Source: Deltaproteobacteria bacterium (GTDB lineage Bacteria > Desulfobacterota > Syntrophobacteria > BM002). From it: 53,860 nucleotides of DNA. Where the stretch lies: the NCBI GenBank assembly GCA_020347625.1, contig CP070735.1, positions 1,378,020 through 1,431,879 on the forward strand, in the 5' to 3' direction. The position numbers were made by a program, and so were the translations under genes. Numbering within the stretch: the first letter of the stretch is position 1; every line of letters begins with the position of its first letter. Under the pieces are notes generated by a model. That model saw only the letters and a program-made list of their open reading frames with translations, did not search any database and was not told the DNA's origin. Shown here one piece after another: positions 3,476 through 51,459 of this stretch.

Positions 3476-4240
3476 ATGGCAAAAGAAATTATCTTTCCAG
3501 TCTCAAATGCATATAAAACCCGCTACCTGATTTTGCCCAGCCTAGAAGACCGGCTGCATCGAATAGTAGTGGGCTGGTCGGATACTGGACCTTGCGACCT
3601 CAGCGTCTTCTGGGCAGAATTGACCAACGGCTTTATCGATCTTTTGGTAGTCGGAGGCGACAGAGGGTTACGCATTTTGGCCAATTCGGAAGAATCAGTC
3701 CCTTTCAACCCAGAAGAAATTGACCTGCCACCCGGTTGGATGGTCAGCCACGTATCTCTGGAACCTCGTGACCTGCCCCCTGATGTTTTGAAGGTAGTAA
3801 ACACCTTCTTCTATGATGTTGGCGTGGATACTTCCAAGAAAGAAAAGAAGGAGAAGGTCCGTCTGCTCTCTGACATTCACAAGACTGAGGAGGTCTGGCT
3901 CATTCTTAGTAAAGACCAGAAACAGCGCCGAGTGATCGGCTGGTCCAAAGAAGGTCCCGCCCAGGTTAACATTTTTTGGGCAAGGTTTGCTGACGACCAA
4001 GTGTCCGTCTGTGTAGCTGGAGGTAGTGAGGGAGTGCGTATCATCACCGCGGAACAGCCTGAAGGAGAGCCGATTAAATATGACAAGAACAAACCTCCCG
4101 GCATTGGGGCACCTTATTTACGAATTAACTATGGTGCTTTGCCCAACGACGTTAAAGAGAATATTGGACCTGAGCCAGAGATCGAGTTGGAAGACGATGA
4201 AGAGATCGCCAAGACCCCGCCCGATCTTGACCTAGATTAA
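3476..4240 (+). CDS. hypothetical protein with an internally duplicated domain and an acidic tail
   Basis: ATG at 3476 preferred over TTG at 3371. Two homologous modules: RIVVGWSDTGPCDLSVFWAELTNGFIDLLVVGGDRGLRIL and RRVIGWSKEGPAQVNIFWARFADDQVSVCVAGGSEGVRII. C-terminus IELEDDEEIAKTPPDLDLD. Confidence 0.6.
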   Translation: MAKEIIFPVSNAYKTRYLILPSLEDRLHRIVVGWSDTGPCDLSVFWAELTNGFIDLLVVGGDRGLRILANSEESVPFNPEEIDLPPGWMVSHVSLEPRDLPPDVLKVVNTFFYDVGVDTSKKEKKEKVRLLSDIHKTEEVWLILSKDQKQRRVIGWSKEGPAQVNIFWARFADDQVSVCVAGGSEGVRIITAEQPEGEPIKYDKNKPPGIGAPYLRINYGALPNDVKENIGPEPEIELEDDEEIAKTPPDLDLD

Positions 4241-4370
4241 GAAGATTGTAGATTTAGATTGCAGATTGTAATATTCCTGATTGCGAATTGTTGTGCTTTT
4301 AAATCTGAAATCTAAAATCTGCAATCTACCCTTCTCACTTTCCACATCGTACACCGCACATCACCCTTCC
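4233..4370. repeat. period-7 tandem arrays: AGATTGN arm, inverted AATCTNN arm, then a CACNNNN array
   Basis: TAGATTA AGAAGATT GTAGATT TAGATT GCAGATT (4233-4273). AAATCTG AAATCTA AAATCTG CAATCTA (4301-4328). CCCTTCT CACTTTC CACATCG TACACCG CACATCA CCCTTCC (4329-4370). Confidence 0.8.
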
Positions 4371-4495
4371 CTAGTTTCGGATGTAGAATTTCAACCAGCC
4401 TTGTGAGCTTCTTGACACCACGAATCTCATTCTTAAAGTTATGGATGTCAGTACATTTGGTTACCGATCACTTGGAGGCAGATTGTTAGATTTTT

Positions 4496-5083
4496 ATGAT
4501 GGATTTCATTGATTACTATGTCAGGTGCACCCATTGCAGTGCGAAGAATAAATTGCCATTAACGAGGCTCGGACGACGGCCATCGTGTGGGAAGTGCAAA
4601 CAAGAACTCTTTCCCGAAAGCTCTCCTATCAGCAGTGGGACGATCATCGTTCCCTGCAAACACTGCCAAACAAACAACAAAATCCCCCTCATAAAGCTTG
4701 CCGACCAGCCCCGCTGCGGCAAATGCAAAACTCTATTGGACTTAGATGTAAATACCCAAAGCACCCCTTTTATCTTGTCAGATCAAAATTTTGCTGAAAC
4801 TGTGCTGCGTTCACCCTTGCCTTTTCTGGTCAATTTTCATTCGCCCAACTGTGGTCCATGCAAGCTTCTCAATCCCATCATCCATAAAATGGCCAAGGAC
4901 TATGAGGGTCGCCTCAAGCTGGGCACCTTTAATGTTGACACACATCCACATATCCCCACCTTGTACAGAATAGGCGGAACGCCTACCCTACTCCTGTTTC
5001 AAGGGGGGAAAGAACGTGGTCGACTTGAGGGCTACCAGAGTTCAGGTGCGGTCGCTCAGTGGGTCCGCCCGTACGCCTGGTAG
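4496..5083 (+). CDS. thioredoxin with two N-terminal zinc-ribbon modules
   Basis: CTHC...CGKC and CKHC...CGKC modules, followed by a thioredoxin fold with active site SPNCGPCK and the cis-Pro region GGTPTLLLF. Confidence 0.85.
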   Translation: MMDFIDYYVRCTHCSAKNKLPLTRLGRRPSCGKCKQELFPESSPISSGTIIVPCKHCQTNNKIPLIKLADQPRCGKCKTLLDLDVNTQSTPFILSDQNFAETVLRSPLPFLVNFHSPNCGPCKLLNPIIHKMAKDYEGRLKLGTFNVDTHPHIPTLYRIGGTPTLLLFQGGKERGRLEGYQSSGAVAQWVRPYAW

Positions 5084-5091
5084 GGAATAGC

Positions 5092-5133
5092 AGGTAGGAG
5101 ACAGCAGACAGCTCGCAGCTGGCAGCTAGAGGT
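5092..5133. repeat. period-7 array (NGNCAGC)
   Basis: AGGTAGG AGACAGC AGACAGC TCGCAGC TGGCAGC TAGAGGT. It is the inverted partner of CTGCCCG CTGCCAG CTGCATG at 5267-5287. Confidence 0.8.
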
Positions 5134-5210
5134 ATACTTTGTTAGTTATGGCTTTTCAGTTATACGATATGATTTATATATTATAGATGATTGGTTTCAG
5201 GGTATTAAAC

Positions 5211-5292
5211 AATCCGCAATTCACAATCTGCCCTCTTATCTCTGATCTCCGACCTCTATCTTATTGCTGCCCGCTGCCAGCTGCATGCTGGA
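5211..5292. repeat. 12 consecutive heptamer units filling the spacer
   Basis: AATCCGC AATTCAC AATCTGC CCTCTTA TCTCTGA TCTCCGA CCTCTAT CTTATTG CTGCCCG CTGCCAG CTGCATG CTGGAC. Confidence 0.8.
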
Positions 5293-7266
5293 CTAATACG
5301 CCAGTTTACCAAGGGACTTAAGGATGAGCGTTATCCCCATAGCAAACATACCGGTGAGGCCCATGCCACAGGAAAATCCGGCCAGCAGTACCGGCGCATA
5401 CTGACGCCACATGGTGCCATAGCGCTTTAGAAAAAAGAAACGACCCAAAAACGCCCCCACCACTTCTAAAATCAAACCGTGGGGGGTACTCTGCCCCAGA
5501 CCCCTCACAACTCCGTAGACCAGCAGCACCGGCAGCCCCAACAGGTTAAGCAAAACATAGGTCACCAAGCCAAAGCCCAGACCGCTCAAGAGGTAGCTAC
5601 CTTTAAGCGCTTGGAAAAACAAAGAATCTCCCTCAAGCGTTGAGGTCTGCATCAAGAGGGTATTCAGGGCTTGCAGATGCCACAACTCTTGAGCGTATGG
5701 ATAGCTGCTGGAAGGAATGGGTGCTAACCGCCAGATGAATTGAGAAAAGAGGAGGCTCGCCACCATCACCACTGGAAAGACAACAATTTCCGCCTTGATG
5801 ATACCGCGAATACTTGTGCCAGTGAGTTCGATCTGGCGAAATTGAACGGTTGCCTCACCATAATTATGGATGGGAATTGGCGCATACCAGATCTCAATAC
5901 CTTGATAGCCAAAAAATTTTGCCCCGGCAATGAAGCTCGCTTCACGAACAAGGGGCAAACTGACAAACTGACCGGCGATCCCCTCCATACGGGCGGTGAT
6001 GTAGGAAATGACCGGGGTGTAAATGAACCCATAGATCAGAAAAAAGAACCAGGGGAAGTTGGGCACCAACAAGAGGCAGAGACCCGTGTAGGCCAGGGTC
6101 GAAAATACATAGATGCCGATAGATATCCAGAAATTGAAATCACCCCGCCCGGGTGGCGGACGAAAAAGCTCACGAAAACTGCCTCTCTGACCAACAGAAC
6201 TCTTACCAAAGGAGCGCAGGACATACCAGATGCCGATCACTCCGATGGCCAAACCCAGACCAATACCGAAACTCATGTAAAAATCAAAGTTGTTGGCGAA
6301 AACCGTATCAACGGTGCCCATGCCTGGGTGCCAGCGGTGCAATATTCCTTTGCTATACAGAATGGGATTGGCAACCACTGTTATGATCAACCCCAGCAAT
6401 CCACCCATCACCGCCCAGAATGGCAGAACCATGCCGAGGAAAATAAGCCCCAGATCAAACTGCAGGCCCGTTGCCACTGCCGGCAGCACGTCCTCGGTGT
6501 GCCGGGTAAGGTCAATCCAAGGAATGGGAATCAAACGGATCGGTTCGGTTAAGAGCAATCCAGAGACCGATGGGAGGAGTACATACAGAGCCCCAAAGCT
6601 AAGGCCGATTACACCGCCGATGGAGAAAACCCGCCATTTCCAACTCTTCTGCTTATCCTCGGTGGATTCGGCCAGAGCCATGGTCCCCAGCGCTCCCACG
6701 GGTGCCATAGGAAAGGGCAGCTTTTCCACATCTGAGGTGATGCGATACAGGGCGTAACCCAGACCAAAATGATCAACACGCTGAATGACCTGCGATCCCA
6801 CCAGCAACAGTATAGGAATCATCCAGTCGCGGTGAAAAAATGTCCTTTCGAGGAGTGACATGGAGGTGGCTTCGGGTGCCACCCACGTGGGTATAAATTC
6901 GGCAAGTCCCAGCATTTTTGCCGCATCGGACTGGACCAAATACTGATTCCACAGCAGACCCTGAAATGGTGATGCCAGAGCCGCACCGGCCATGTAATAC
7001 AGCAGAAAGATCTCCTGTTGTTTGAGCTCGGTGTAGGATCTCTTGGCAATCTCAGCGAAAAGAATGATTGTGACCCAGCGGGCCGCCGGGCCGATGCCTG
7101 TGCCAATCACCAACTGCAGGTACATACTGCCCGGCATCATCAGAAAACCGATGAAGATGGCCCCAACGATGGTCTTCCAGTCGAAGCCCTCCTCGAAATG
7201 ATCGGGTGTTTTTAGAAGATCTCGGTATTCCTGCAGTTCTTTGTCGTCGTACATTTCACTTCGCAC
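5293..7266 (-). CDS. large polytopic membrane protein (657 aa), family not recognised (possibly transporter-like)
   Basis: ATG start and many hydrophobic segments throughout. Last gene of the co-directional ABC/FtsX array. Confidence 0.75.
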   Translation of the reverse strand: MRSEMYDDKELQEYRDLLKTPDHFEEGFDWKTIVGAIFIGFLMMPGSMYLQLVIGTGIGPAARWVTIILFAEIAKRSYTELKQQEIFLLYYMAGAALASPFQGLLWNQYLVQSDAAKMLGLAEFIPTWVAPEATSMSLLERTFFHRDWMIPILLLVGSQVIQRVDHFGLGYALYRITSDVEKLPFPMAPVGALGTMALAESTEDKQKSWKWRVFSIGGVIGLSFGALYVLLPSVSGLLLTEPIRLIPIPWIDLTRHTEDVLPAVATGLQFDLGLIFLGMVLPFWAVMGGLLGLIITVVANPILYSKGILHRWHPGMGTVDTVFANNFDFYMSFGIGLGLAIGVIGIWYVLRSFGKSSVGQRGSFRELFRPPPGRGDFNFWISIGIYVFSTLAYTGLCLLLVPNFPWFFFLIYGFIYTPVISYITARMEGIAGQFVSLPLVREASFIAGAKFFGYQGIEIWYAPIPIHNYGEATVQFRQIELTGTSIRGIIKAEIVVFPVVMVASLLFSQFIWRLAPIPSSSYPYAQELWHLQALNTLLMQTSTLEGDSLFFQALKGSYLLSGLGFGLVTYVLLNLLGLPVLLVYGVVRGLGQSTPHGLILEVVGAFLGRFFFLKRYGTMWRQYAPVLLAGFSCGMGLTGMFAMGITLILKSLGKLAY

Positions 7267-7267
7267 A

Positions 7268-7423
7268 GCGCATGGCGCAGAGCGCTAAGCGCGGAGAGTA
7301 TTTAGGGTAGACGCATATGATCATCGAGGACGAGTTGCAGTCCTGCAAAGAAAATAAAAAAGCTACTATTCCATTTGGTTTTGTTTATTCACGCTATGCG
7401 CTATGCTCTATGCGCTTTGCGTC
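7268..7423. repeat. inverted pair of heptamer arrays (AGCGCNN / ATGCNCT) about 95 nt apart
   Basis: AGCGCAT GGCGCAG AGCGCTA AGCGCGG (7268-7295) against ATGCGCT ATGCTCT ATGCGCT TTGCGTC (7396-7423). Confidence 0.75.
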
Positions 7424-7425
7424 AA

Positions 7426-9465
7426 TTATGTGGGCAGCACCTGGTAGCTGGCATAGGTGAAAAGACCCACCAATGCCCAGCCTCCCGCCATCAGAAAATC
7501 GCCCAGAATTAAACCGATAAAGAAAAATCTTATTTTTTTAAAAAGGGATACGCCGCCGTATCTTAGACTCAAATGGTTGCAAAGCCAGCCCACCAGAAAG
7601 CTGAACCAGAGGATCCGCATGGCCGAACTATACGTGGTTAAATAGCCTATAGGGTGGATGGGCCACCAGTAAAAGCGTTGATAGAGAATCACCAGAACAA
7701 GCATGACCACAGCCCCCACACCTGAAAACACCAGCACCCAATGGCGTGGTCCTCCCGGCGCATCCAGGAGTCGCTGGACATTATCATACACACCAATAGT
7801 GGTTCGGGTGGCCCACTCCATCTGGAGTTCTCGAATCCCGTATTTGTGGCAAAGCGCCAGCATGGCCACAAAAGACGCCAACAACCCGGTGAGTATGGCC
7901 AGAAGAATAGCCACAAAGAAAATACGTTTATTGCGGATACCCTCTCCCACCTTGGCGCCATGAAACAGAGAGGGCATTATGGATTCCCTCAAGTCGACAA
8001 ACATTACCTTCTGCATGACCGCGGCCATTAGTAAACCCAAATTGGTAAAGAAACGGGAGCCAAAAAAGGCGAGCAGGCCATCGGTGGGTGCCACCGAAAG
8101 GGTAAAGTAGGCGATGCCTCCTTGGCATATCACCCTGGTCGCCACCAGCATAACAAAGAAGAAAGCGCCAAGGAGCAGAAGGGTCACCTTCAGGGACATA
8201 CCAAACTTGAGGCACCATAAAACCAGCAAACAGGTTCCCAACCAGAACCCCCAACCGGACATCCGCACAGAAAACATCTCCGATGCGGACATTTGCGCCT
8301 TCCCGGGAACAAAGCACTGCCGCACCACATCCCGGAGGTGGTAGCGTGCCAACCACAGCATGAAGAGAAAGAAAACCGCATAAGCCCCGATGATCTGCGT
8401 CTCTTCAGGGCGGGAAAGAGTGGGCCCGAAAGTAATACCCAGGGCAGCAGCAGGGATGTTGTAGCCCAGAATGGACAATAGCCCGAACAGCAGACCCCCT
8501 AGCAGAAAAAAGAACCAGAAGCTAAAGGAAATCTGGCGCGAGGTAAGAAAGGCAAAGCCAATGAAGGCGGGATAAATGTGAATCTTGAGCTTGTGGAAAC
8601 CTGAAAAAAGGCCATGTTTCGGGAAATAGGGACCGGCAAGAATCAGCGTGGGAATTTGGGGCACCTCGGGAAAATAGAAGTGGAGACCGTTGAGAAGGTG
8701 CAAGAAAAAAGTGGCCAGCACTCCGACAATCAGGAATCGATTGGCGAGAAACCGGCCGAAGCGTTTTTCGGCCAGGGCCTCCTCCATGAGCTGGGGCACC
8801 CGGAGGAGCGGAAAGTTCATCTTTTCGTTGGTAATCCATTGCTGGCTAAAAATATTCACCAGGCATAGCATCACCCAGTAGCTCAGAACAATAAAGCCGG
8901 CCCAGGTAAGTAGCGGCTGCAACCAGCGATCCCAAGGAATCTGCCGCAGGACCTCCAACCAGCCTAGCTGGCGCCCTCCCTCAAGTCCATTGTAGAGGAG
9001 CGCAATGGCATTCATATCGCCCGGATACCACCCCTTGGGTAAAAGGGGCTGAATCACCTCGTTCCAACGATTTCCAACGGTTGCGAAGTGGTAGGGCGCC
9101 GTGACATTGATGAAAAAGGTCCGAGCTAGGCCGGTGTAGGCAATTCCCGAGGCAATAACCGATATGATCCAGATCACGAAAAGCTCTCGACCACTCAGCA
9201 GCGATGATAGAAACCGTAGTCTACCCAAGGCCGCAATAGCCACGGAGAGCCAGAAAAAAATGAAAAATGGTGCGAGAGGAAAGTGACCGCCACCCAGCGG
9301 TGTGGCACTACGATAGGCGTTGTTGAATGGGGTTATGGCACAGATCAGTACTCCTAGTGCCACCCCCAATATCAAGGCTCGCAGTCTTACCCGACCTTGC
9401 ATCATCTTCACGTCCGCTTCGCTAATAACGGTCAACTCCACACAGAGACGATATTTCGTCGGCAC
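7426..9465 (-). CDS. large polytopic membrane protein (679 aa), family not recognised
   Basis: GTG at 9465 lies 12 nt after the stop of the giant upstream gene. Alternative ATG-ATG at 9405/9402. Hydrophobic throughout. C-terminal WWPIHPIGY...LRYGG block. Confidence 0.75.
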   Translation of the reverse strand: MPTKYRLCVELTVISEADVKMMQGRVRLRALILGVALGVLICAITPFNNAYRSATPLGGGHFPLAPFFIFFWLSVAIAALGRLRFLSSLLSGRELFVIWIISVIASGIAYTGLARTFFINVTAPYHFATVGNRWNEVIQPLLPKGWYPGDMNAIALLYNGLEGGRQLGWLEVLRQIPWDRWLQPLLTWAGFIVLSYWVMLCLVNIFSQQWITNEKMNFPLLRVPQLMEEALAEKRFGRFLANRFLIVGVLATFFLHLLNGLHFYFPEVPQIPTLILAGPYFPKHGLFSGFHKLKIHIYPAFIGFAFLTSRQISFSFWFFFLLGGLLFGLLSILGYNIPAAALGITFGPTLSRPEETQIIGAYAVFFLFMLWLARYHLRDVVRQCFVPGKAQMSASEMFSVRMSGWGFWLGTCLLVLWCLKFGMSLKVTLLLLGAFFFVMLVATRVICQGGIAYFTLSVAPTDGLLAFFGSRFFTNLGLLMAAVMQKVMFVDLRESIMPSLFHGAKVGEGIRNKRIFFVAILLAILTGLLASFVAMLALCHKYGIRELQMEWATRTTIGVYDNVQRLLDAPGGPRHWVLVFSGVGAVVMLVLVILYQRFYWWPIHPIGYLTTYSSAMRILWFSFLVGWLCNHLSLRYGGVSLFKKIRFFFIGLILGDFLMAGGWALVGLFTYASYQVLPT

Positions 9466-9476
9466 CAGGCACTTCG

Positions 9477-12400
9477 CTATGCCCAGCTCATTGCCGTCAG
9501 CCTTTCAGAGCTAAATTCGGTCTCCAACAATTTGCTATAGTGAGCCTGGGCCTCATCGTCCAGAGAACGCCACACCAACAGTTGTTTACGAAGATCATTG
9601 AGGAAGGCCTTGTTGATCCGTTTCCAGTAATTCGCCTCTCCTGCCTCCCGCTCTACCCGGACCTGGATTTCCAGGTAGTTGTCAGGATCCTCAACGGCAG
9701 GGCAAAATTGGAGGCTAACGAGCTGTTTCACGCCAAAATCAAAGGGTGCCAACCATACCCGGGTGTAAATCTGGATGCAGTCATTCTCACAATGTCCCGG
9801 GGCCTCGAGGCGAGATATCTCGTCAATTGGGCAGTAGAATTCCAGAGATATGTCGTCTGTGGTGAAAAGCCCGTGAGACACATCCCGATGTCCAAGATAG
9901 TATTCCCGCAAATAACCGCCAATACCCTTTTGTTCGCGATATTTCAACAGAAACGGCAAGGTGATCTTGATCTCGTTTTCCTCCGGTTCCGGCAATTTCC
10001 AGGCTCGGTATACGTCGGGAATGGCAATGTCTGCTGCCACCTTGGAAGGATAAATGACCGATACCAGTACGACCAACATCACCAGGATCATGGCAGCGAC
10101 TCCAGCCAACGAGGAGTAATTCACCGTAATTCCCTGCCACAGTGATGTGGTGGAAAAAATTTCTGCGGAGGTCTGGGCCAACAGGTAACCCAGCACCACG
10201 CTGAGCACTGCAAAGGCCATCGCTTCGGCTATGAAAAGAAAGGAGACATGAAAGGGCGCCAAGCCAACTGAAGTGTAAACACCGATTTCCCGTTTTCGCT
10301 CATAAACACTGCCAATCATGGTGTTGAGGACGATCAACACGGCAATGAGCAGGGGAATGAGTATATTGGGAACGCCACTGTAGCTCAAGGCGTCGGAGGC
10401 GTGATACATGAAAGTCCCTTCCTCTTCTCCACTGAAAAGGGTAAGGCCAAAGCGATCCACCAGGTTCATGGCTGTTGTCCTGGTTACCACCCCTGATTGG
10501 GGACTTATGGCAAGAGACTTGAGACTCCCGCCCAAGGCCATAAGGGTTTGATATGGAACGATCAGGGTGAGATCTCCGGCAACATGTTGATAGCGACTCT
10601 GGAAAGCCTGGACATCCTCGCCAGCCTCTATGGCCTCCATCTCGACCTCAGTGACCTCTTTGGCCGCCTCGCTGGGAAATATCACAGGTGTGAGCGGCTC
10701 ACCGTCTAAATCAAGAAAGCTCTGCAGGCTATCACCCCGAAACAGACCCACAACCTTAAAGGTCATGCCCCAGAGAGTCACCGTGGCTCTCTCAGGTCGC
10801 TCCAAAGAGACCCCGAGACTCTGAGCCAACCTTTCCGACAGGAGCACCACCCGCCGCTCTTCCGGTTCGAACCAACGTCCAGAACTGAGCACTGTTCCAA
10901 GGCCGCTGACCTGCGGTTCTCGATCACTCAACCCCACCGTCCCTCTTGCCAGAACTTCCCTACCCTCCCGCCGAAGAGAAACCACCATGGGCTGGGTGCG
11001 ATCTTCGTTTTCCAGCCAAGATCTGGGTACAACTTCCCCCTGGGCCTTAAACTTGTTTGCTACTGTGGTAAAAGCCTGAGGCGGCAGGCTCTCCCAGTTC
11101 AGAACTTTCAAGAGAAACCCTTCGTAGGGTGCCTGTTTCTGCAACTGCAACCGGCCTCGCAGGCGCAGACTCTTTACGGTGGTGAAACTCATGATGGTGA
11201 AGGTAAGTATGATCAAGGTCACACAGGTTAATACCGTACGAATGGGGCGGCGTCGTAGATTACTTACCCCCAGAACAAAAGCGGCGACGAATGCTTTGGT
11301 CTTGCTGATTTCGGAAGCCTTTATATGTCGGGCTCTTTGTTGGAGCTCCACCATTTCCTGTTCAAAGCGGTTCATGATGATCAAGGCTACCATCACCGAC
11401 AGACCCAGGATGAAAAAAGCGAGGATAACCACCACCGGACTGTACGTGAGCTGAAATGCTGGATGTACTTGGTAAATGAGAGCTATGACGAGACCCAGGA
11501 TCACCAGAAAAGCAATGATTCTGCGATGAATATCAACGAAAGAGAATAGCAACCGTTCTACACAATAAGCGAAGGGAACAAAAAGGGCCACGTAAAAGAG
11601 GACTCCGAACAGAACGTCTTTCTGCGTCTTTTCTACGTCGTCATAGACGCGGATTGCCAGAGCCCAAGATTTCTTGGCCTCCTCCACAAAGCGGTCATAG
11701 CGACGTTCGCTCAAGGCCTCTTCAGCCCGTTGCAGGGCCTCGACCCCCTCTTGTTGGAGTGAGCGAATCCGCTGATTATTGATCCCATGGCTCTCCAAAG
11801 CGGTTATCCTCGGCAGCAAGAGGCTCCACATATCGTGAGCTATCCGGTATTCAGTAGCCGGGATGATTGGCCAGTTCTCAACGCGATACCCCGTGCCGTC
11901 GGGCCGGGACTTTTTGGAATTGAGCAAGATTAGCTTCCGGGTGAGCACCGAGTCAGACAGGGTCAATTTGAACGGTGTGAGAGGCTCCAGGTAAATGCTA
12001 GCCAGAATGGAGGAACGGGTATCGATCCTGCTCCACCAGTAGCGCAATGGCTTGGCCTCGGTCCGCCCGTCTATCAGCTTTATCTTGGTCATGTAACTGA
12101 AGGTTCGCGGCTCTATTAGACTGAACAATGTACTCACCCTACATGCAAACATAATCAGTTCAGTCTCCATGAAGCGACGCCTCATCTTGACTCGATAGGC
12201 TGCCTTGCCGGTCATTGGTTTGTCGACGGCCCAAATAACCTCCCCGTTTTTGGGATCGAAGCGAAATCCTTCCAAAATTGCCTTGTGGATGGTGTGCTTG
12301 CTGTCGGCCAGACCCCGAAACTGAAATGAACCGGCAGTGTCCACCATGCTGTAGAATTGGCCAGGCCCTTGATAGGCAAGAATGAGCGTTCCCGAAGCTG

Positions 12401-18176: not shown

Positions 18177-18218
18177 TTGTTATTTGTCATCTGTTGTTGG
18201 TCATTGGTCATCTTGCGG
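18177..18218. repeat. period-7 array containing TTGGTCA units
   Basis: TTGTTAT TTGTCAT CTGTTGT TGGTCAT TGGTCAT CTTGCGG, directly upstream of the GT gene start. Confidence 0.7.
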
Positions 18219-20016: not shown

Positions 20017-20126
20017 GGGTTGACCAACTATTCTTACCAGGCACTAGGCATATCTCTAATTTCGCATGTTGCATTTAATCATTAGGGATAAGGCGCAAAA
20101 ACTATAACGAATGTTATTCTCCACTG

Positions 20127-20161
20127 TTCAATGCGCAATGAGAAATGTGAGATGTGAATGG
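20127..20161. repeat. period-7 array (NNNAATG)
   Basis: TTCAATG CGCAATG AGAAATG TGAGATG TGAATGG. This is the complement-type of the CACATNN arrays at 4329 and 31660. Confidence 0.7.
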
Positions 20162-20201
20162 ACACTAGGCAGCATCCCATTTCTTAGTAGTGCTGTTTAC
20201 G

Positions 20202-22302: not shown

Positions 22303-22374
22303 TTCACCAACCAACCCATTGGTTCGTAAATTTGCTCCCGCGTACCCTTAGCTTTGAGCTGCCCCGGGGGGAGA

Positions 22375-22461
22375 GGTACAAGGTGCAGGGTATAGGGTTC
22401 AGGGTAGAATGAATCTTTAATACTCTTTATTTCCCTGCACCTTACACCTTGCACCTTTTAC
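22375..22461. repeat. inverted pair of heptamer arrays (GGTNNAG / CTTNCAC)
   Basis: GGTACAA GGTGCAG GGTATAG GGTTCAG GGTAGAA (22375-22409) against CCTGCAC CTTACAC CTTGCAC CTTTTAC (22434-22461). Confidence 0.8.
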
Positions 22462-22651
22462 CTCTTTTGTTTGCAAAGCCATTGAAACTTGACCTGGCCC
22501 GCAGGACCAGGTTTTCTTGCCCAAATAAAAGAAGCCCGCCGAAGCGGACCTCCCTGTTTATCCGTAACCCATCCAGCTTTAGAAAAGTCAATCCAACTTG
22601 TCTACCTTTTGAGCAAGACCTGCAAGAATCGCTCAATTTACTTCCGATCTA

Positions 22652-29783: not shown

Positions 29784-29818
29784 GTAGCACTAGGCACTAA
29801 GAACTAGTCACTAGAAAG
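29784..29818. repeat. period-7 array (TAGNCAC)
   Basis: GTAGCAC TAGGCAC TAAGAAC TAGTCAC TAGAAAG. Related words ACTAGGC occur at about 20045 and about 20165. Confidence 0.75.
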
Positions 29819-31568: not shown

Positions 31569-31659
31569 TCCAGTTTAGCTTTCGAACATCGAGAGGTTAT
31601 CCGCGAAAAGGGCTATGAATTCACCGATATGTGATGTGCCATAGGGATTTTTTAATGAT

Positions 31660-31708
31660 CACACATCCCACATCTCACATCCCCCATCTCTTCACCCTTC
31701 TTCCCTTC
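31660..31708. repeat. period-7 array (CNCACAT decaying to CCCTTCT)
   Basis: CACACAT CCCACAT CTCACAT CCCCCAT CTCTTCA CCCTTCT TCCCTTC. Confidence 0.8.
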
Positions 31709-37789: not shown

Positions 37790-37964
37790 ATTCTCAGCGC
37801 AACCTTCTGTGTGCTTGACGGCAGGTTACAGGTACGGTGAGACAATCAACCAATCGTTCGTTTCAGCGCTGATACATTGATCCCATTCTAATAAAGAGCT
37901 ATGAACGATGTCAACAACGCGGCATGACTTCTCATCCAGCCAGAGCTGGAGTATACTACCACGC

Positions 37965-38040
37965 AGATTGAAGATTGCAGATTGAAGATTTTTCCTGAAG
38001 ATTGAGAAAACGCAACTTCAATCCGCAATCTACAATCTCA
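37965..38040. repeat. inverted pair of AGATTGN / AATCNNC heptamer arrays (same family as 4233-4328)
   Basis: AGATTGA AGATTGC AGATTGA AGATTTT ... AGATTGA (37965-38005) against CAACTTC AATCCGC AATCTAC AATCTCA (38013-38040). Confidence 0.8.
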
Positions 38041-42461: not shown

Positions 42462-42762
42462 GAGCTCATACTTCACAGAACTGGCAGGCTGCGTAACCGA
42501 CGTTTAGTATTTTTCGCTCACCCCTCTTTATCTTTCATCCTTTGGGACAGTTGTCGAAATTCAGCATTGCGTCTTCGGAAACGTTTCGATAACGTAGTAG
42601 CCCCGTTAAGCTTCAGCAGACGGCTGGATTTACCTTTATAAGCCGCAGCACCAAAAATCAAGAATAGGAGGACCCGCCTTCGCCCAGGCGACGGCGCGGC
42701 AGGCCCTGGCTTTGGACTGCCCTCTGTGAAAGGTACAGGGTTCAAGGTGCCTGGCCTATGTT

Positions 42763-42871
42763 AGGCAGCAGCAGACAGCAGGCAGCAAAAAGAATCACAG
42801 TGTCAATGTTCCAAAGAACTTCATGCCCCATGCTCTATGCTCTATGCTCTATGCCCTATGCTCTATGCGCT
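42763..42871. repeat. two heptamer arrays (AGCAGNC x4, then ATGCNCT x7)
   Basis: AGGCAGC AGCAGAC AGCAGGC AGCAAAA (42763-42790). ATGCCCC ATGCTCT ATGCTCT ATGCTCT ATGCCCT ATGCTCT ATGCGCT (42823-42871). Confidence 0.85.
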
Positions 42872-42929
42872 CTGACCTGGCTTAGAGGACCAGGTTATCT
42901 ACGATTAATAGATTTTCACTTGAGATGGA

Positions 42930-42956
42930 GAACTTTTTCCATCTTCTGTTGTCTAA
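42930..42956 (+). promoter_or_regulatory. ECF (sigma-E-type) autoregulatory promoter candidate
   Basis: GAACTT (42930-42935), 16-nt spacer, TCTAA (42952-42956), immediately upstream of the ECF sigma gene. Confidence 0.45.
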
Positions 42957-42965
42957 TGACGACAA

Positions 42966-43589: not shown

Positions 43590-43592
43590 CTC

Positions 43593-44381
43593 ATGGATTG
43601 CCTAAAGTACCACGCACAGTTTACCGCCTACCTGGACGGTGATCTTCAACCAGAAGAGCGCAAGGCAATGGAGTCTCACCTTAAAGAATGTTTGCTCTGC
43701 TACCGCAAATGGCATTCCCTGCAAAAAATGCAGGCAGTTTTAAGCCGGTTGCCGGATCTTGATCCTCCCGAGCACCTCAGTGGACTGGTAATGGCGAGGC
43801 TGAGGGAGCGCCAGTTCCGTCAAAGCTTCTGGCCAGTTGCTATCACCCCCCGTTGGTTGCCCCTGGGGGTTGGTGTAGCGGCACTATTGTCTGTTTTCCT
43901 CATAATTTGGCAGCTCGTGCCCTCACCATTGCCCGTGCCAGCACCTGCAGACCAGAAGAGAATGATCACGAGAACCGGTCCCTCCGAGCAGTCCGTAGCT
44001 ACAGTCAAGACAACTGAGCGCAATCTTGGCTCCACTGGCCCGGTGATGGTCCTCAAGGTCAAGGACTTCTCCAGGGTGAATCAACAATTGGAAGCTATGT
44101 TACGGGCGTTTTCCCAATCCATGGCGCAGGAGCGGGAATCGATCCGGCCTGTCCGTTCTAGCTCAGCTCGCCTGATTGATGTTCAGGTTCCAGGCCAACA
44201 ATTTCAAGATCTGATCCGCGAATTGCATAAGATGGGCCATCTGGACCCAGGCCAGCTAGATAGCCAGGAGTTTTCTTCTCCCCGCCAGACTAAGGCCATT
44301 TCCATTCGTATCATTGTGGTCAGTAACGGAAAGGACACTGAGGTCCTGAGGCAGGTCCATACCGCTCCAAATCAGGAATAA
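43593..44381 (+). CDS. anti-sigma factor (zf-HC2 type, single TM)
   Basis: H-x3-C-x2-C motif in MESHLKECLLCYRKW. TM segment WLPLGVGVAALLSVFLIIW. Starts 4 nt after the sigma stop. Confidence 0.8.
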   Translation: MDCLKYHAQFTAYLDGDLQPEERKAMESHLKECLLCYRKWHSLQKMQAVLSRLPDLDPPEHLSGLVMARLRERQFRQSFWPVAITPRWLPLGVGVAALLSVFLIIWQLVPSPLPVPAPADQKRMITRTGPSEQSVATVKTTERNLGSTGPVMVLKVKDFSRVNQQLEAMLRAFSQSMAQERESIRPVRSSSARLIDVQVPGQQFQDLIRELHKMGHLDPGQLDSQEFSSPRQTKAISIRIIVVSNGKDTEVLRQVHTAPNQE

Positions 44382-44558
44382 ACAATCCAGGTCAAGAAAA
44401 CCCAGCTTTGATCTGCCCCGCAAGGAAGCTCCCCGACCCGACCGCTGATTGAGAAGGAGTCAGCCCTTCTACGAGACCTGTCGACGAGACTTGTCGACGA
44501 GCTCAAGTCGTGTCGCTCAGGGCAGGTAGCTAGAATTCAGGAGACAGGAGAAACCATA

Positions 44559-44699
44559 GGAATATTGGAAGGTTGGAATAATGGAATGATGGGGTAAGGA
44601 TCATTTCAGTTTGTAGATTGCGGATTTCAAGAAAGGCTACCTCTTCCGTTTACCTCTCACGATTCACGATTTAACGCTTGCCGTTTACGCTTTATCGTT
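44559..44699. repeat. period-8 GGAANNNT array, an AGATTGC word, then a period-7 CACGATT/TACGCTT array
   Basis: GGAATATT GGAAGGTT GGAATAAT GGAATGAT (44559-44590). GTAGATTGCGGATTTC (about 44611-44628). CACGATT CACGATT TAACGCT TGCCGTT TACGCTT TATCGTT (44658-44699). Confidence 0.8.
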
Positions 44700-47011
44700 T
44701 ACTCTAATCGCTTCCACCGTGTGCCCTCCGGAGTGTCGATAACCTGGATACCACAATCTAGTAGCGCCTGCCGAAGACGGTCGGCTTCGTCCCAGCGCTT
44801 GTCACGCCTGGCCTCAATCCTGGCCTCCAAAAGTCGGCAAGTATCTTCATCCAATTCCGCTTGGACTCGGTAGATGAGATTGAGCACTGAATCCAACCGT
44901 TCCATAGCCTCCAGCGCAGCTTCCCTCTGGCTCTCACTCAGAAGTCCCCTTGAAATGAATGGATTGAGTTTGCGGATAAAACTGAAGACGGCAGCAAGTG
45001 CTGAAGAGATGTTCAAATCGTCAGCCATCGCCTCGTCAAAATTTTGCTCAACTTCAAAAATGAACTGGTCAACCTCTTCGCCAGCCTCTCCGGTCGACCC
45101 ATGTTGCAGTCTCTGGATAAACTCATCCAAACGTTCCAGGCTCCGGGCTGCTTCCCGCAATCGATCCTCCTCAAAATGCAGGGCTTTGCGGTAGTGGGTG
45201 GCCAGCAACCAGTAACGAATCTGTCTGCCGCTGTAGCCTCGATCTGAGAGCTGCTGGATCGTTACCCTGCCCTCGCCTTCCTTGGACATCTTCTTGCCAC
45301 CCGGCAATACCCGTTCGCAATGGATGAAGTAGTTGGCAAGCGGTTTGCCGCTGGCTGTCTGGCCAATGGCAATCTCGTTTTCATTGTGAGGGAACAAAAA
45401 ATCCAAGCTGCTGGTGTGTATATCTATGGTCTCCCCTAAATATTTCTTGGCCAACGCTACTGTCTCAAGATGCAGTGATGGCAACACATTACCCCAGGAA
45501 GTTTTCAGATAGTTCCCGCTTTTCAGTTCGGCTAAAGTGGCCCGTCTGAGCAGGGTGAAGTCTCGGGGATTCTCTTTCTCGTAGGCTTCAAGATCAACTG
45601 TCTTCCCGAGGCGAATCTTCTGGAGATCCACCCTAGACAGCCGCCCATAGTCCTCAAATTTGGAGATATCAAAATAGACCGAGCGTAACTTCTCGTAGGC
45701 GTAACCTTTTTCCATGAGGCTCTTACTGATCTCCAGTATGTCATCAACATGCTCGCTTGTGCGTGGATAGTAAGTGGCTGGCTGCACACCCAAAATGTCC
45801 AAATCTCGATTGCAGGTCTCAATGCATTGCCTGGCAGCAATGTCAAAAGTCACGCTGTCCACCGCCGAATCCAGAACCGCCTTCTCTCCCATGTCGGTGA
45901 TATTGATCACCTGGGTTACCTCGAAACCCTTCTGCTCCAAATATCGCCGCATGAGATCAGCCACCACAAAACGGCGGCTGTCTCCCAGGTCGAGGGATTC
46001 GCCTACGGTTGGACCGGTGGTGAACAGTGAGATCTTGCCCTCAAAGATCGGCTTGAAGTCTTCTTTTTGGCGGGAGAGTGTATTGTAAAAACGGAAATCT
46101 GGTTCTGAGAGGGTAGTAAACAGATTGGTGCTTAGATAACGCTCGCCACCGTCTGGAAGGATGGCAACAATTGTGCCCTGCTTTAATTCGCTGGCCTTGC
46201 GAAGTGCAGCAGCCATGGCAGCCCCGCCGCTCATTCCCACAAACAAACCCTCCTGTCGGGCCAACCGCCTTGCGGTCTCGAAGGCTTCCGCATCTTCGAT
46301 ATGCACGATCTCATCCAGGATCTCTTTGTCGAATATCCCAGGAACGTAAGACTCTTTCATATTCTTGAGCCCCTGAATCTTGTGCCCCATATATGGCTCA
46401 ACAGCGATCATACAGACGTCTTCTAGATATTCCTTCATGCGTCTGGTAAGGCCAATGGCCGTACCGGTAGTACCAAGAGTCGTTACGACGTGGGTTACCC
46501 TCCCCTCGGTTTGCTCCCAAATTTCGCGGGCGGTGCCAAAATAATGCGCCTTCCAGTTATCTTCGTTGTTGAATTGATCGGGCATGTAATACCGGTCAGG
46601 AAATTGCCGCACAAGCTCATAAACTTTTTCTATGGCTCCGTCAGTACCAAGGGCGCCAGGGGTCAACAGGATCTCCGCCCCCAGTGCCTTGAGTATTTTC
46701 TGGCGTTCTTGGCTGGCGGTCTCGGGCATGGCCAATGTAATAGTGTAGCCTTTCACCGCAGCGACCATAGCCAGGCCGATGCCGGTATTGCCACTTGTGG
46801 CCTCGATGATAGTCCTATCGGGAGTCAACTCGCCCCGTTGTTCGGCTTCCTCGATCATCTGAAGCGCAATTCTGTCCTTTACTGACCCGCCGGGATTCTG
46901 GGCTTCCAGCTTTGCGTAAATCCTTACCTGGGGATTTGGATTGAGGCGGTTGATCAGGATCAGCGGCGTGTTGCCAATCAACTGCAGGACATTATCATAG
47001 ACATTTCCCAT
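44699..47011 (-). CDS. cysteine synthase (CysK/CysM-type, PLP) fused to a full-length but signature-degenerate cysteinyl-tRNA-synthetase-like module
   Basis: N-terminal GGSVKDR (PLP Lys), EATSGNTGIG, LGTTGT and GMSGGAA. From about residue 305, FYNTLSRQKEDFKP (CysRS N-terminus), but DLGD replaces HIGH and KMSKE replaces KMSKS. The CysRS-like anticodon-binding and C-terminal helices are retained. Confidence 0.85.
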   Translation of the reverse strand: MGNVYDNVLQLIGNTPLILINRLNPNPQVRIYAKLEAQNPGGSVKDRIALQMIEEAEQRGELTPDRTIIEATSGNTGIGLAMVAAVKGYTITLAMPETASQERQKILKALGAEILLTPGALGTDGAIEKVYELVRQFPDRYYMPDQFNNEDNWKAHYFGTAREIWEQTEGRVTHVVTTLGTTGTAIGLTRRMKEYLEDVCMIAVEPYMGHKIQGLKNMKESYVPGIFDKEILDEIVHIEDAEAFETARRLARQEGLFVGMSGGAAMAAALRKASELKQGTIVAILPDGGERYLSTNLFTTLSEPDFRFYNTLSRQKEDFKPIFEGKISLFTTGPTVGESLDLGDSRRFVVADLMRRYLEQKGFEVTQVINITDMGEKAVLDSAVDSVTFDIAARQCIETCNRDLDILGVQPATYYPRTSEHVDDILEISKSLMEKGYAYEKLRSVYFDISKFEDYGRLSRVDLQKIRLGKTVDLEAYEKENPRDFTLLRRATLAELKSGNYLKTSWGNVLPSLHLETVALAKKYLGETIDIHTSSLDFLFPHNENEIAIGQTASGKPLANYFIHCERVLPGGKKMSKEGEGRVTIQQLSDRGYSGRQIRYWLLATHYRKALHFEEDRLREAARSLERLDEFIQRLQHGSTGEAGEEVDQFIFEVEQNFDEAMADDLNISSALAAVFSFIRKLNPFISRGLLSESQREAALEAMERLDSVLNLIYRVQAELDEDTCRLLEARIEARRDKRWDEADRLRQALLDCGIQVIDTPEGTRWKRLE

Positions 47012-49597: not shown

Positions 49598-49606
49598 TTT
49601 TTTAAG

Positions 49607-49750
49607 TATTGGAATGATGGAATGTTGGAATAATGGGTTTAAAGGAATAAATTCCCTATTCTATATACGGCGCGACGAAACCATTAAAGATTTAGACGTT
49701 TTCGATTTAATCCCATCATTCCATTGTTCCATTATTCCACTATTCCAATT
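49607..49750. repeat. inverted pair of period-8 arrays (TNNTGGAA / ANNNTTCC) with a spacer of about 75 nt
   Basis: TATTGGAA TGATGGAA TGTTGGAA TAATGGGT (49607-49638) against ATCATTCC ATTGTTCC ATTATTCC ACTATTCC (49715-49746). Confidence 0.8.
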
Positions 49751-50010
49751 GCATTTAGCCGCATATCTCTGAGTTTAGCTCAGAGGTAGGTCCTCCGAGC
49801 CTGGATTATTTGCCACTAACACCTTAGCATACCCAATTCTGGTGGTAATAGCCAACCCGTGGCAGAGGTGGTAAACTTGCACTGCATTTTTTATTCTGGG
49901 GGCAGCAATTCTGTCAAGCGCATTTGCACTGTGTGGTTTTGTCTTGAACAACGACAACCAAACCCACTATACTTGACACCAGACTGACGAACCCTTTAAA
50001 AGGAGAATGT

Positions 50011-50397
50011 ATGATAGACCTGCTTTACATCCGCGATGAGGAAACGCATCCAGAAGGCTCGATCATTTTCGAAGAGGGAGGATTCAGTGATTGGGTCTAC
50101 GTCATCTTGGAAGGCGAGGTCAAAGTCAGCAAGAATACGCCCAGAGGACAAGTTACAGTGGCAAAGCTGGGGGAGGGAGATTTTATCGGTGAACTCGAAT
50201 TCCTGGACATGGGCAAAGAGCCCCGTTCCGCTACTGTGACCGCTGTGGGTGAAGTGAAATTGGGAGTTGTTGATCGCGACAAACTGAGGCGAGAATACGA
50301 CAGTCTTTCCCCAGATTTTCGAAAAATCATCCGCACCCTGGTTCAGCGGCTACGGCGCATAACCATTCAGGCTGCTGCCCTGGCCAGTTCCCGATAA
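50011..50397 (+). CDS. stand-alone cyclic-nucleotide-binding domain protein
   Basis: IFEEGGFSDWVYVILEGEVKV, GDFIGELEFLD and RSATVTAVGEVKL (phosphate-binding cassette). AAGGAG RBS. Confidence 0.85.
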   Translation: MIDLLYIRDEETHPEGSIIFEEGGFSDWVYVILEGEVKVSKNTPRGQVTVAKLGEGDFIGELEFLDMGKEPRSATVTAVGEVKLGVVDRDKLRREYDSLSPDFRKIIRTLVQRLRRITIQAAALASSR

Positions 50398-50407
50398 TTA
50401 CTCGGCT

Positions 50408-51379
50408 ATGGCTTTACTTCCTGTCCTCCCCTCTTGCCAAGCGGTCGTAGAACAGAGCCAATCTGTTTATATCGACCCTACTGCCATATCATACTTTCTC
50501 GACACCAATGCAGCCCTGAAAATACCCCCCCTGCCACAAGGTCCGGCACCATATCATTATTTTGACTCTACAGCCGTCACCGTTCAATGGCTCCTTGTCC
50601 TGGACACTCTCAATCATTGTTTTTGGTCCGAGGTGGGCTCTCCCCTTTGGGAAATCCACTATGAAAATGAGAAACTCTCCGGCTACTGGGCTCTGGCGGC
50701 CAGTCTCAAACGTGCCATGGAGGAGGGGATTCCTCTCACGGAGGCGAAAACCTTGGCCACACTAAAACGTGACACTCTGGTCCACGTCTTTCGAGGCAGT
50801 GGCAAGATCCCTCTTTTCGACGAGCGTTTGGAAAATCTGCGCCAAGTAGGAAAGGTTCTGCTGGATCGATTCCAGGGCAGCTTTATACACGCGCTGGAGG
50901 AAGCCAGGGGCTCGGCCGTCAAACTTGTCCTTTTTCTGGCGGATGAATTTCCCAGCTTCAACGATACAGCCAATTATCATGGAAATACAGTATGTTTTTT
51001 CAAACGAGCTCAGCTGCTTGTCCAAGATTTGTGGTGCACCTTTTCAGGAACCTCCTGGGGAAATTTCCACGACCTGGACGAGCTTACCGCCTTCGCTGAT
51101 TATAAGCTGCCCCAGGTTCTCCGCCATCTGGAAATCATCCGGTATGAATCAAAACTGGCTGCGCAAATCCAAAGATTGGCTCACATTTTGCCAGGCAGTG
51201 CTGAAGAGGTGGAGATCCGAGCCGCGACCATTTGGGCAGTGGAATTGCTCCGTCAGGAAATGGTCAGACGAGGTCAGGAAGTTAACTCCGCCCAATTGGA
51301 CAGCTGGCTCTGGCATTTGGGGCAGAATGATATGTACCGCAGCCTGCCATACCACCGAACCCGGACAATTTTTTATTAA
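50408..51379 (+). CDS. queuosine salvage protein (DUF2419, Qng1-like)
   Basis: LDTLNHCFW, FFKRAQLLVQDLW and LTAFADYKLPQVLRHLEII blocks characteristic of DUF2419. Confidence 0.75.
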   Translation: MALLPVLPSCQAVVEQSQSVYIDPTAISYFLDTNAALKIPPLPQGPAPYHYFDSTAVTVQWLLVLDTLNHCFWSEVGSPLWEIHYENEKLSGYWALAASLKRAMEEGIPLTEAKTLATLKRDTLVHVFRGSGKIPLFDERLENLRQVGKVLLDRFQGSFIHALEEARGSAVKLVLFLADEFPSFNDTANYHGNTVCFFKRAQLLVQDLWCTFSGTSWGNFHDLDELTAFADYKLPQVLRHLEIIRYESKLAAQIQRLAHILPGSAEEVEIRAATIWAVELLRQEMVRRGQEVNSAQLDSWLWHLGQNDMYRSLPYHRTRTIFY

Positions 51380-51438
51380 TCATAGAAAACCTGGGCCAAG
51401 TCAGAACTCAACAGCTTTGCCAGCCTAAGAGGTATCTA

Positions 51439-51459
51439 GCATAGGGCATCGGGCATCGG
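51439..51459. repeat. short period-7 array
   Basis: GCATAGG GCATCGG GCATCGG. Confidence 0.6.

Follow-up and report, generated by a model that had tools for sequence, protein, structure and literature searches.

The spacers between genes in a 53,860-nt stretch of DNA from an uncultured member of the Desulfobacterota (contig CP070735.1, positions 1,378,020 to 1,431,879; the window, here meaning that whole stretch) carry short arrays of degenerate 7-nt and 8-nt words, and I think it rather likely that these arrays are slippage-prone tandem repeats of the kind known as short tandemly repeated repetitive (STRR) sequences or long simple sequence repeats (LSSR), organized in part as small dispersed hairpin elements and largely selfish or neutral. 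Heptanucleotide repeats were recognised in cyanobacteria in 1990 and have been on record for prokaryotes at large since 2007; to my knowledge, their origin, the reason for a period of 7 and their function have not been established. The window offers a well-resolved case in an uncultured sediment lineage of Desulfobacterota for which several near-identical natural strains are at hand, and this one place displays unit-step slippage, co-evolution of hairpin arms, all-or-none turnover of whole units and a composite element with a head and a tail.

The periodicity is strong and confined to the spacers. Tandem Repeats Finder (TRF), run on the window, returned 37 rows, 16 of period 7 and 4 of period 8, nearly all intergenic (Table 1), and every array listed in the original prediction, which had been made from the sequence alone, was found where it had been placed. 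Lag-7 identity reached 0.293 in 8.6 kb of spacers against 0.252 +/- 0.005 in 200 dinucleotide-preserving shuffles of those spacers (z = 8.5), lag-14 identity was likewise raised over the shuffles (z = 6.5), and coding sequence, at 0.242 for lag 7, gave no signal. In a strict scan, which required 16 or more of 21 lag matches, period 7 accounted for 4.5% and period 8 for 1.3% of spacer bases, and periods 4-6 and 9-12 for none; coding sequence was flagged at period 9 alone (0.07% of bases) and never at period 7 or 8. The proposed enrichment of these two periods over shuffled and coding sequence is thus borne out, and they are the only periods enriched in the spacers. However, the claim that most spacers resolve into arrays was too generous: at a looser threshold (15 of 21), arrays occupy 12 of 29 spacers (41%) and 692 of 8,704 spacer bases (8%), compared with 0.04 array-bearing spacers after shuffling.

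Each unit consists of a constant core of 4-6 nt and one to three drifting positions, the arrays run to 3-7 copies, and 8-nt units are a minority. At least 12 word families occur within 54 kb, in convergent, divergent and tandem spacers alike, and the same words do recur at distant loci of the window, as had been noticed (families D1 and D2; also seen by blastn). The view that neither a terminator consensus nor a CRISPR-type structure explains the arrays also held: Rfam at gathering thresholds returned no family in the window, a tRNA scan found none, the scan for terminator consensus matched none of the heptamer hairpins, and the CRISPR layout of 24-48-nt repeats separated by unique spacers of similar length does not apply to units of 7-8 nt that abut directly.

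Strains were compared by means of a sister metagenome-assembled genome (MAG), hereafter the sister MAG (contig JASFEM010000011.1, about 46 kb rebuilt from loci L085, L093 and L096), and with a second MAG (L099) that covers the first 12 kb of the window. Between the window and the sister MAG, coding identity is 95.4% and aligned spacers are 92.1% identical, while several spacer segments cannot be aligned at all. The original prediction had proposed looking for unit-number variation between MAGs, and indels of 7, 14 and 22 nt are indeed present at about 95% identity. The sister MAG has one more unit (+7) at 9468 (TAGGCAC TAAGCAC GAGGCAC), at 18200 (extra GTCGTTA) and at 51444 (extra GGACAAG), two units more (+14) at 37970, in the left arm alone, and about three units more (+22) at 29814; within the mosaic spacer 44406..44710, which shows 13-, 7- and 14-nt indels against both the sister MAG and a contig from an RNA run, the unit-step changes are +7 at 44655 and -14 at 44689. 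At about 5281 the second MAG has an extra GCTGCAT unit (+7) in a spacer that is otherwise 100% identical. Eleven arrays could be compared with the sister MAG, and five of them are absent or replaced there, three are changed by whole units and three have the same length.

Four spacers (7255-7429, 22346-22527, 31639-31743 and 42681-42872) are unalignable despite conserved flanks. At 7255-7429, where the flanks are 99% identical, the sister MAG carries a different 64-nt inverted-repeat sequence instead of the GCGCNNN/TATGCNC pair; at 31654-31691 it has an unrelated direct repeat; segment 22346-22527 is missing from it; and its allele of 42681-42872 retains an intact GGTACAG/CCTTGNG hairpin, together with the head and the entire tail of the composite element described below. 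In the TAGGCAC array at 20040-20170, which the sister MAG carries as an uninterrupted TAGGCAC x3, the 112-nt element at 20051-20162 is specific to the window. Conversely, a 293-nt unit specific to the sister MAG (L093:2608-2915) lies at window position 25430, in the spacer after a NamZ-like gene, and is absent from the window; it carries a hairpin of TGGAATNN octamers, the same family as at 49601-49752 and 44556-44600, together with a tail module, and it ends in the terminal inverted repeats TCAAGAATCTGG / CCAGGTTTTCGATCTTGA. Hairpin units of 112 nt, about 175 nt and 293 nt are present in one strain and absent from the other, and both the 293-nt unit and segment 22346-22527 combine terminal inverted repeats with all-or-none presence, as miniature inverted-repeat transposable elements (MITEs) do. 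As for target-site duplications, a TA is possible but not clear at 25430, and the ACTAGGC flanks at 20051 are indistinguishable from array units; no parent transposon or transposase for the hairpin units was seen in the examined loci.

Two stretches, 6890-7254, which adjoins the replaced spacer 7255-7429, and 5084-5292, which itself holds arrays, are 99.5-100% identical between strains that average about 95% coding identity, and identity so far above the strain average suggests recent recombination at both. Among the genes, 39877-40450 is a replacement, in which the 137-aa putative carbonic anhydrase (Pro_CA_2) of the window has an unrelated 250-aa protein without a Pfam family as its counterpart in the sister MAG. 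The roughly 300 nt at 32394-32700 are missing in the sister MAG and in three metatranscriptome contigs, with 32393 joined to 32701 through 7 other letters, and since this segment covers the 5' part of the open reading frame (ORF) at 32562-32930, that ORF is doubtful as a gene. Two further tandem repeats, of periods 12 and 13, also differ by one unit between the strains: the period-13 repeat at 44463-44528 (ACGAGACCTGTCG x2.4, with GTCGAC palindromes), which differs by one 13-nt unit and may be a separate high-copy element like the repetitive extragenic palindromic (REP) sequences, and the period-12 repeat at 31905-31956 (TTTTTACCCATT x2.2), which lies within a 17-19-bp hairpin followed by a T-run and has one 12-nt unit fewer in the sister MAG.

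Arrays are often accompanied by their reverse complement, and inverted pairs were found at 4255/4313, 5109/5273, 22372/22433, 37965/38016 and 49608/49705, with 24-146 nt between the arms. The original prediction had six such pairs folding into long imperfect hairpins, and four of the six are significantly stable as RNA when compared with shuffles: 4236-4332 (-27.3 kcal/mol for the hairpin, z = -6.1), 22368-22470 (-52.4 kcal/mol, z = -7.9), 37960-38042 (z = -5.9) and 49604-49752 (z = -4.5). The other two, 5092/5267 and 7268/7396, share inverted words without a significant fold (5084-5295, z = -1.9, weakly better than shuffles; 7280-7426, z = -1.3, not significant), which rules out these long-range hairpins as significant structures, and the unpaired arrays at 42755-42880 and 44552-44698 fold worse than shuffles (z about +2). 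Stems contain a mismatch at every seventh position because that base is the variable position of the unit. The further claim that the hairpins sit at gene ends did not survive, since no tie to 3' ends was found and those at 37965-38038 and 49605-49751 lie between divergent genes. Beside the former, 37885-37964 holds outward promoter-like sites, of which the minus-strand TTGACA-18-TAGAAT (11 of 12 matches) would serve the Memo-AMMECR1 gene and the plus-strand TTCTCA-17-TATACT would put the 37965-38038 hairpin at the extreme 5' end of the SpoU-methylase mRNA.

At 49600, the sister MAG has arms that are near-perfectly complementary even at the variable positions (-57.8 vs -42.8 kcal/mol), with five right-arm substitutions matching the left arm, so that the arms of this hairpin have co-evolved, in one clear case. 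The 4243 hairpin differs in a same-species MAG by about nine arm substitutions at equal stability (-27.3 vs -27.9), and the 37961-38040 hairpin is identical in four Logan assemblies. Unlike the changes in the 49600 and 4243 hairpins, however, the 14-nt expansion at 37970 affects one arm alone. As a whole, the pattern agrees with the arms of quasi-palindromes being corrected against each other while slippage proceeds unconstrained, rather than with strict structural selection.

Some of the hairpins belong to a composite element. One tail of about 55 nt, reading GGCAAAGCYATTGA..TGACCTGG-(loop)-CCAGGTTWTCTAYGATTAATA, comes after three hairpins with different arm words (GGTNCAN, TGGAATNN and GGTACAG/CCTTGNG), and it also follows the arrays at 42818-42871, where the second half alone remains, and at 51432-51466, on the minus strand. 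Its 3' half, ACCAGGTTWTC, is invariant, its small stem is not preserved by compensatory changes, and one copy lies 66 nt upstream of an extracytoplasmic function (ECF) sigma-factor gene; the tail could be a promoter, a weak terminator or the end of the element. A phase-variable promoter for the ECF sigma gene was considered and set aside, given that the conserved promoter-like motif stands downstream of the array and keeps its spacing. At 22352, at 42710 and in the allele that the sister MAG has of the 42681 site, the left arm comes directly after a head, GCTTTGRNCTGCCCC, and the head motif at 44406 stands about 150 nt before the octamer array at 44556. The GCTTTG of the head and the CAAAGC of the tail are inverted copies of each other, and the window-specific segment 22346-22527 spans nearly exactly head to tail. 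The head-tail module is absent among the matches listed in a metagenome scan that yielded at least 120 loci (see below), and it therefore appears to be lineage-specific.

The window has a G+C content of about 51% and about 42 genes, among them AmmeMemoRadiSam genes, a CysM-CysRS fusion, glycosyltransferases, an ECF sigma factor and a queuosine-salvage gene, and the original prediction was right that this content is not cyanobacterial. The closest named relatives of its tryptophanyl-tRNA synthetase (TrpRS) are MAGs of Deltaproteobacteria or Thermodesulfobacteriota; against the GTDB species genomes, two MAGs stand at 81% identity, followed by Desulfarculaceae, Desulfurivibrionaceae and Desulfobulbaceae at 64-67%, and the same-species MAGs are Desulfobacterota too. 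The 90% protein clusters shared with the window have members labelled 'Syntrophobacterales bacterium' MAGs, and the sequencing runs that contain window sequence are mangrove, estuary, sediment and wetland metagenomes. The host is thus an uncultured member of the Desulfobacterota of mangrove, estuary and wetland sediments.

In 78 TrpRS loci from other species, 1.2 Mb in all, the density of strict period-7 segments is 0.22 per 10 kb, compared with 2.0 in the window and 4.4 in the closest other species (L005). The latter has arrays in partly the same spacers, on both sides of the adenine deaminase gene, made of different words; a GCGCATA array stands there at the position of window 31654-31691, and arrays also occur in spacers that are just 22-37 nt long in the window. 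In four DNA metagenomes, summed contig depth rises from about 10-15 to 500-2000, 50-100 times the neighbouring level, in the bins with the ATGCTCT array and with the repeats of 44452-44735, and contigs end there with heterogeneous flanks. Metagenome contigs scanned for ATGCNCT x3.5 gave at least 120 loci with G+C from 0.32 to 0.68, and the matches listed contained 306 strict segments of period 7, whereas each of the other periods gave 4-45. The word families, which recur in the window and stand at 50-100-fold raised depth in metagenomes, are therefore dispersed and multicopy in the way that STRR and LSSR are. In metatranscriptomes the organism is present as low-depth Logan contigs in which transcript ends are not mappable. 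One 4.2-kb contig from an RNA run spans 42000-44885 including the arrays, and because it also crosses convergent genes, DNA carry-over is possible.

The same metagenome loci brought up a gene family, PF05635 (23S-rRNA-IVS protein, named for the intervening sequences, IVS, of rRNA). Among the matches listed there are six PF05635-like ORFs, and in three of those loci an array adjoins the PF05635 gene. L125 (E = 9.5e-25) and L207 (E = 1.6e-25) have inverted GCGCATA/TATGCNC arrays close on both sides of the gene, and these are the very words found at window 7262-7425 and 42818-42871. In L192 (977-1710) a PF05635 ORF has a GCATAG array on one side and is apparently interrupted on the other by an 89-aa GIY-YIG ORF, an arrangement resembling a selfish gene lodged within another small cassette. 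Arrays flank three of five PF05635 ORFs on both sides, compared with 6.5% of all genes in those loci, a ratio biased by the selection of the loci for the arm word, and 117 of 120 arrays among the matches listed have no PF05635 neighbour. In the window itself, none of ten small ORFs had a Pfam match, and tblastn with the six PF05635 ORFs had no match under E = 0.1 in either the window or the sister MAG. The link between arrays and PF05635 is accordingly supported as an association and not as an explanation of the arrays in the window. Two other candidate cassettes among the other-species TrpRS loci were dropped: an ORF between inverted arrays in L072 looks by eye like a transposase fragment, no family search having been run, and a 257-aa ORF in the same position in L023 looks like an ordinary gene.

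Taken as slippage-prone and largely selfish or neutral DNA, the arrays behave as follows. The number of units shifts by slipped-strand mispairing, seen in the 7-, 14- and 22-nt steps between strains; a constant core with drifting positions leaves a stem mismatch at every seventh base wherever inverted arrays pair, as sequence and folds directly show; inverted arms are corrected against each other, in one clear case, presumably by intramolecular template switching at quasi-palindromes; and whole hairpin units, some of them composite with head and tail, are gained, lost and replaced in otherwise conserved spacers. Slippage, arm correction, turnover of units and a shared head and tail together point to rapidly evolving and largely selfish or neutral DNA like that of REP sequences and bacterial interspersed mosaic elements (BIMEs), Correia elements or MITEs, and not to the sites of one regulator; there is no sign of a sequence-specific regulatory role. 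If transcribed, an imperfect stem of 22-35 bp would by analogy be expected to serve as an RNase III substrate or as a block to 3'-exonucleases, altering the stability of neighbouring cistrons. Four points weigh against this account: selection, for example for protein binding, could be what keeps the unit cores and the head and tail conserved, and not homogenisation; a hairpin occupies 7255-7429 in both strains with different words, so that structure itself could be selected; nothing found accounts for the period of 7; and the RNA runs consist of low-depth Logan contigs.

In a rival reading, the hairpins are mainly mobile, non-autonomous cassettes that spread as MITEs do, the inverted arrays are their functional ends, the full form contains a gene, with PF05635 as the candidate, and slippage is secondary. 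I hold this to be possible though rather unlikely. It would account for units present in one strain alone, including the hairpin nested in the TAGGCAC array and the 293-nt unit with its terminal inverted repeats, for a head and tail conserved around variable arms, for the high copy number of the arrays in metagenomes, and for the bracketed PF05635 genes of L125 and L207, the one-sided array of L192 and the excess of PF05635 ORFs with arrays on both sides (three of five, compared with 6.5% of genes). However, neither the window nor the sister MAG loci hold a PF05635 gene or remnant, 117 of the 120 listed arrays are not beside one, the loops of hairpins of the same family are unrelated, target-site duplications are unclear, no transposase was identified, and the association was measured in loci chosen by the arm word. 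A broader version, in which the hairpins of the window are gene-less members of a cassette class that crosses phyla and whose full form has a gene for an Avd-like PF05635 four-helix-bundle protein between the arrays, is doubtful; if true, cyanobacterial STRRs, the paired sites of Geobacter and rRNA intervening sequences would share one origin and gain a candidate protein partner. That the arrays are binding sites of a nucleoid-associated protein or global regulator, each 4-6-nt core being one contact, seems very unlikely to me: cores are constant within units while one to three positions vary, the paired opposite-strand layout matches classes 1-3 of G. metallireducens, and the class 3 word MTYCTGA is resembled by a TCTCTGA-like array at 5232-5262 and by CTCCTGA arrays of L005 and L023, but the 54 kb contain at least 12 unrelated words, arrays disappear, give way to others or change their words between strains that are about 95% identical and likewise from species to species at one spacer, and no common class of neighbouring gene was found.

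Highly improbable is a role as terminators, attenuators or other selected RNA structures at transcript ends, even though four hairpins are very stable, arrays lie within 12 nt of stop codons at 4243, 5096, 5293 and 7423, and the tail module forms a small stem followed by TTTTC. No U-tract or T-run follows any of the heptamer hairpins, whose loops are 24-146 nt long, and the terminator scan matched none of them; a classical GC-rich terminator at about 22528-22550, separate from the hairpin, is kept between strains; two hairpins stand between divergent genes; the two-unit expansion in the sister MAG affects one arm alone; and unpaired arrays fold worse than shuffles. A sponge of the CsrA type for the octamers that contain GGA was also rejected, given that GGA is missing from other word families and that each arm pairs with its partner. 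As to chance periodicity or an assembly artefact, which the original prediction had named as a possible refutation, I give it practically no credence: z is 8.5, only periods 7 and 8 are enriched, and independent MAGs show the arrays again, as do Logan contigs and assemblies of many runs.

If the arrays are read as slippage-prone, largely selfish or neutral repeats, some practical consequences follow. Annotators need not expect long spacers here to conceal genes or regulators, the repeats explain why assemblies break at these sites, and the link between TATGCNC arms and PF05635 in metagenomes is a testable lead to a protein partner. The sites are collected in Table 1.

Table 1. Arrays, hairpins and modules of the window (coordinates are window positions unless a locus is named)
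Feature	Position (strand)	Units, arms and parts	Context and support
AGATTGN-arm hairpin	4243..4328	arms 4243-4272, 4298-4328	starts 3 nt past stop of gene 3371-4240; TRF; inverted repeat I13
Array-filled spacer	5096..5293	NNNCAGC x4 5096-5129; CAATCNN x3 5211-5231; YCTCTNA x4 5232-5262; GCTGCNN x4 5265-5293 (inverted partner of NNNCAGC array)	convergent genes
GCGCNNN / TATGCNC pair	7262..7425	GCGCNNN x4 7262-7295; inverted TATGCNC x4 7388-7423	spacer of two genes, one ABC-type cluster
Short NNGGCAC units	9466..9480		span 11-nt gene junction
GTCATNN / TTGGTCA units	18184..18211	2-4 copies	TRF
TAGGCAC array	20040..20170	broken by 112-nt hairpin element 20051-20162	element window-specific
112-nt element	20051-20162	arms CATTNNN 20062-20085, AATGNGN 20128-20158	fold -26.3 kcal/mol
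Composite element	22351..22520 (+)	head GCTTTGAGCTGCCCC 22351-22373; GGTNCAN arms 22372-22404, 22433-22465; tail GCAAAGCCATTGA..TGACCTGG..CCAGGTTTTC 22470-22520	inverted repeat I2, 85% complementary
TAGGCAC-family array	29784..29818		68-nt spacer, adenine deaminase / helicase gene
CACATCN array	31654..31691	x4	upstream of adenine deaminase
AGATTGN-arm hairpin	37961..38040		between divergent Memo-AMMECR1 and SpoU-methylase genes; inverted repeat I3, 91% complementary
Degenerate composite element	42710..42912 (+)	head 42710-42725; orphan GGTNCAN half-arm 42731-42752; NNNCAGC array 42763-42790; ATGCNCT x7 42818-42871; tail 42873-42912	
Mosaic spacer	44406..44710	head motif 44406-44421; period-13 repeat 44463-44528; TGGAATNN x4 44556-44600; AGATTGC remnant 44611-44626; heptamer arrays 44645-44710	convergent genes; last arrays overlap CysM-CysRS stop codon
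Octamer TGGAATNN-arm hairpin	49601..49752	arms 49601-49641, 49707-49752	between divergent genes; inverted repeat I1
GCATNGG array	51385..51466 (-)	x3 51432-51466; then conserved tail module 51440-51385	minus strand
Tail module, five copies	22470-22520; 42873-42912; 51385-51440 (-); L093:2600-2690; L085:6545-6630		
Period-7 arrays	4243-4270, 4301-4328, 5109-5127, 5233-5261, 5265-5290, 7392-7421, 18197-18211, 20137-20158, 22375-22406, 22438-22457, 29787-29814, 31658-31690, 37965-37990, 42823-42868, 51439-51460		TRF
Period-8 arrays	44559-44592, 49610-49636, 49713-49747		TRF

The likeness to cyanobacterial STRRs that the original prediction had put forward is apt: both are tandem heptanucleotides, intergenic, dispersed and of several word families per genome. 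The canonical cyanobacterial words are CCCCAGT, TTGGTCA and CAACAGT, and the TTGGTCA match in the window, at 18197-18210, amounts to only two units and is probably a coincidence. In Nostoc, small elements named SDR (small dispersed repeat) and attributed to Elhai in 2008 are reportedly nested in STRR arrays. Unlike STRRs, the arrays of the window belong to a Desulfobacterota host, use other words apart from those two units, are short (3-7 units) and often form hairpins as inverted pairs; they share with STRR and LSSR head-to-tail 7-nt units beyond chance, a non-coding location and variation in unit number, and differ from a strict cyanobacterial STRR in host and in canonical words.

As small, high-copy extragenic hairpins that are polymorphic between strains and occur also inside operons, they are equally reminiscent of the REP, BIME and REPIN (REP doublets forming hairpins) elements of enterobacteria and Pseudomonas and of the Correia elements (Correia repeat enclosed elements, CREE) of Neisseria, and stable folds together with metagenome copy number do make them high-copy extragenic imperfect palindromes. 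When transcribed, REP and Correia elements become RNA stem-loops that stabilise mRNA or are cleaved by RNase III. Their arms, however, are unique palindromes and not tandem heptamers, and REPINs have a REP-associated tyrosine transposase (RAYT) as mobiliser and Correia elements TA duplications, neither of which could be shown for the window hairpins; no RAYT (IS200/IS605-like Y1) transposase gene is present in the window. The 23S rRNA IVS and PF05635 (S23p/IVP) cassettes are also small elements bounded by stem-forming inverted repeats, the rRNA IVS forming a stem that RNase III cleaves (PMC4990558). The window has arms of the same heptamer words as the PF05635 cassettes; unlike them, its hairpins have no gene, PF05635 or other, between the arms and no rRNA context.

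Heptanucleotides were found to be the most abundant LSSR in many prokaryotes, with polymerase slippage as the proposed origin (Mrazek, Guo and Shah, 2007, as outlined in PMC4679880), and the preference for period 7, the sporadic phylogenetic spread and the slippage of LSSR, so far as that outline goes, agree with the 7-nt-step indels seen here; in the same outline, the LSSR work concerns direct tandem repeats alone and does not extend to inverted pairing, head and tail modules or whole-unit presence and absence. The TAACTGA direct repeats of marine Beggiatoaceae, cyanobacteria and Bacteroidetes (MacGregor, 2015; PMC4679880) are likewise intergenic heptamers, in 2-6 copies and sporadic across phyla, but one word dominates among them, most sit directly before start codons, and inverted pairs are hardly ever found. 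A search for papers that link cable bacteria with heptamer repeats found none, other Desulfobacterota lineages not having been searched.

A matching architecture is known from Geobacter metallireducens, where Aklujkar (2009; PMC2700814) described paired sites on opposite strands, each of four tandem octanucleotides or five heptanucleotides (classes 1-3, Gmet_H4## elements), and read them as sites for a global regulator of the IHF (integration host factor)/HU type. Those sites have 4-5 tandem 7- or 8-mers (GTTGCTYN, MTYCTGA) mostly in opposite-strand pairs at variable distance, and are intergenic, multicopy and absent from a sister species (PMC2700814); the window has the same architecture of tandem 7-/8-nt units in intergenic, opposite-strand pairs. 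The words differ, although of the published consensus words GTTGCTYN, TCTCCGTS and MTYCTGA the last may have counterparts in the TCTCTGA-like array at 5232-5262 and in the CTCCTGA arrays of L005 and L023, and the strain comparison made here points to rapid turnover rather than to conserved regulation. Heptamer arrays outside cyanobacteria have thus been described before, by Mrazek and colleagues in 2007 and in G. metallireducens, and the window is a further case of this known type of repeat.

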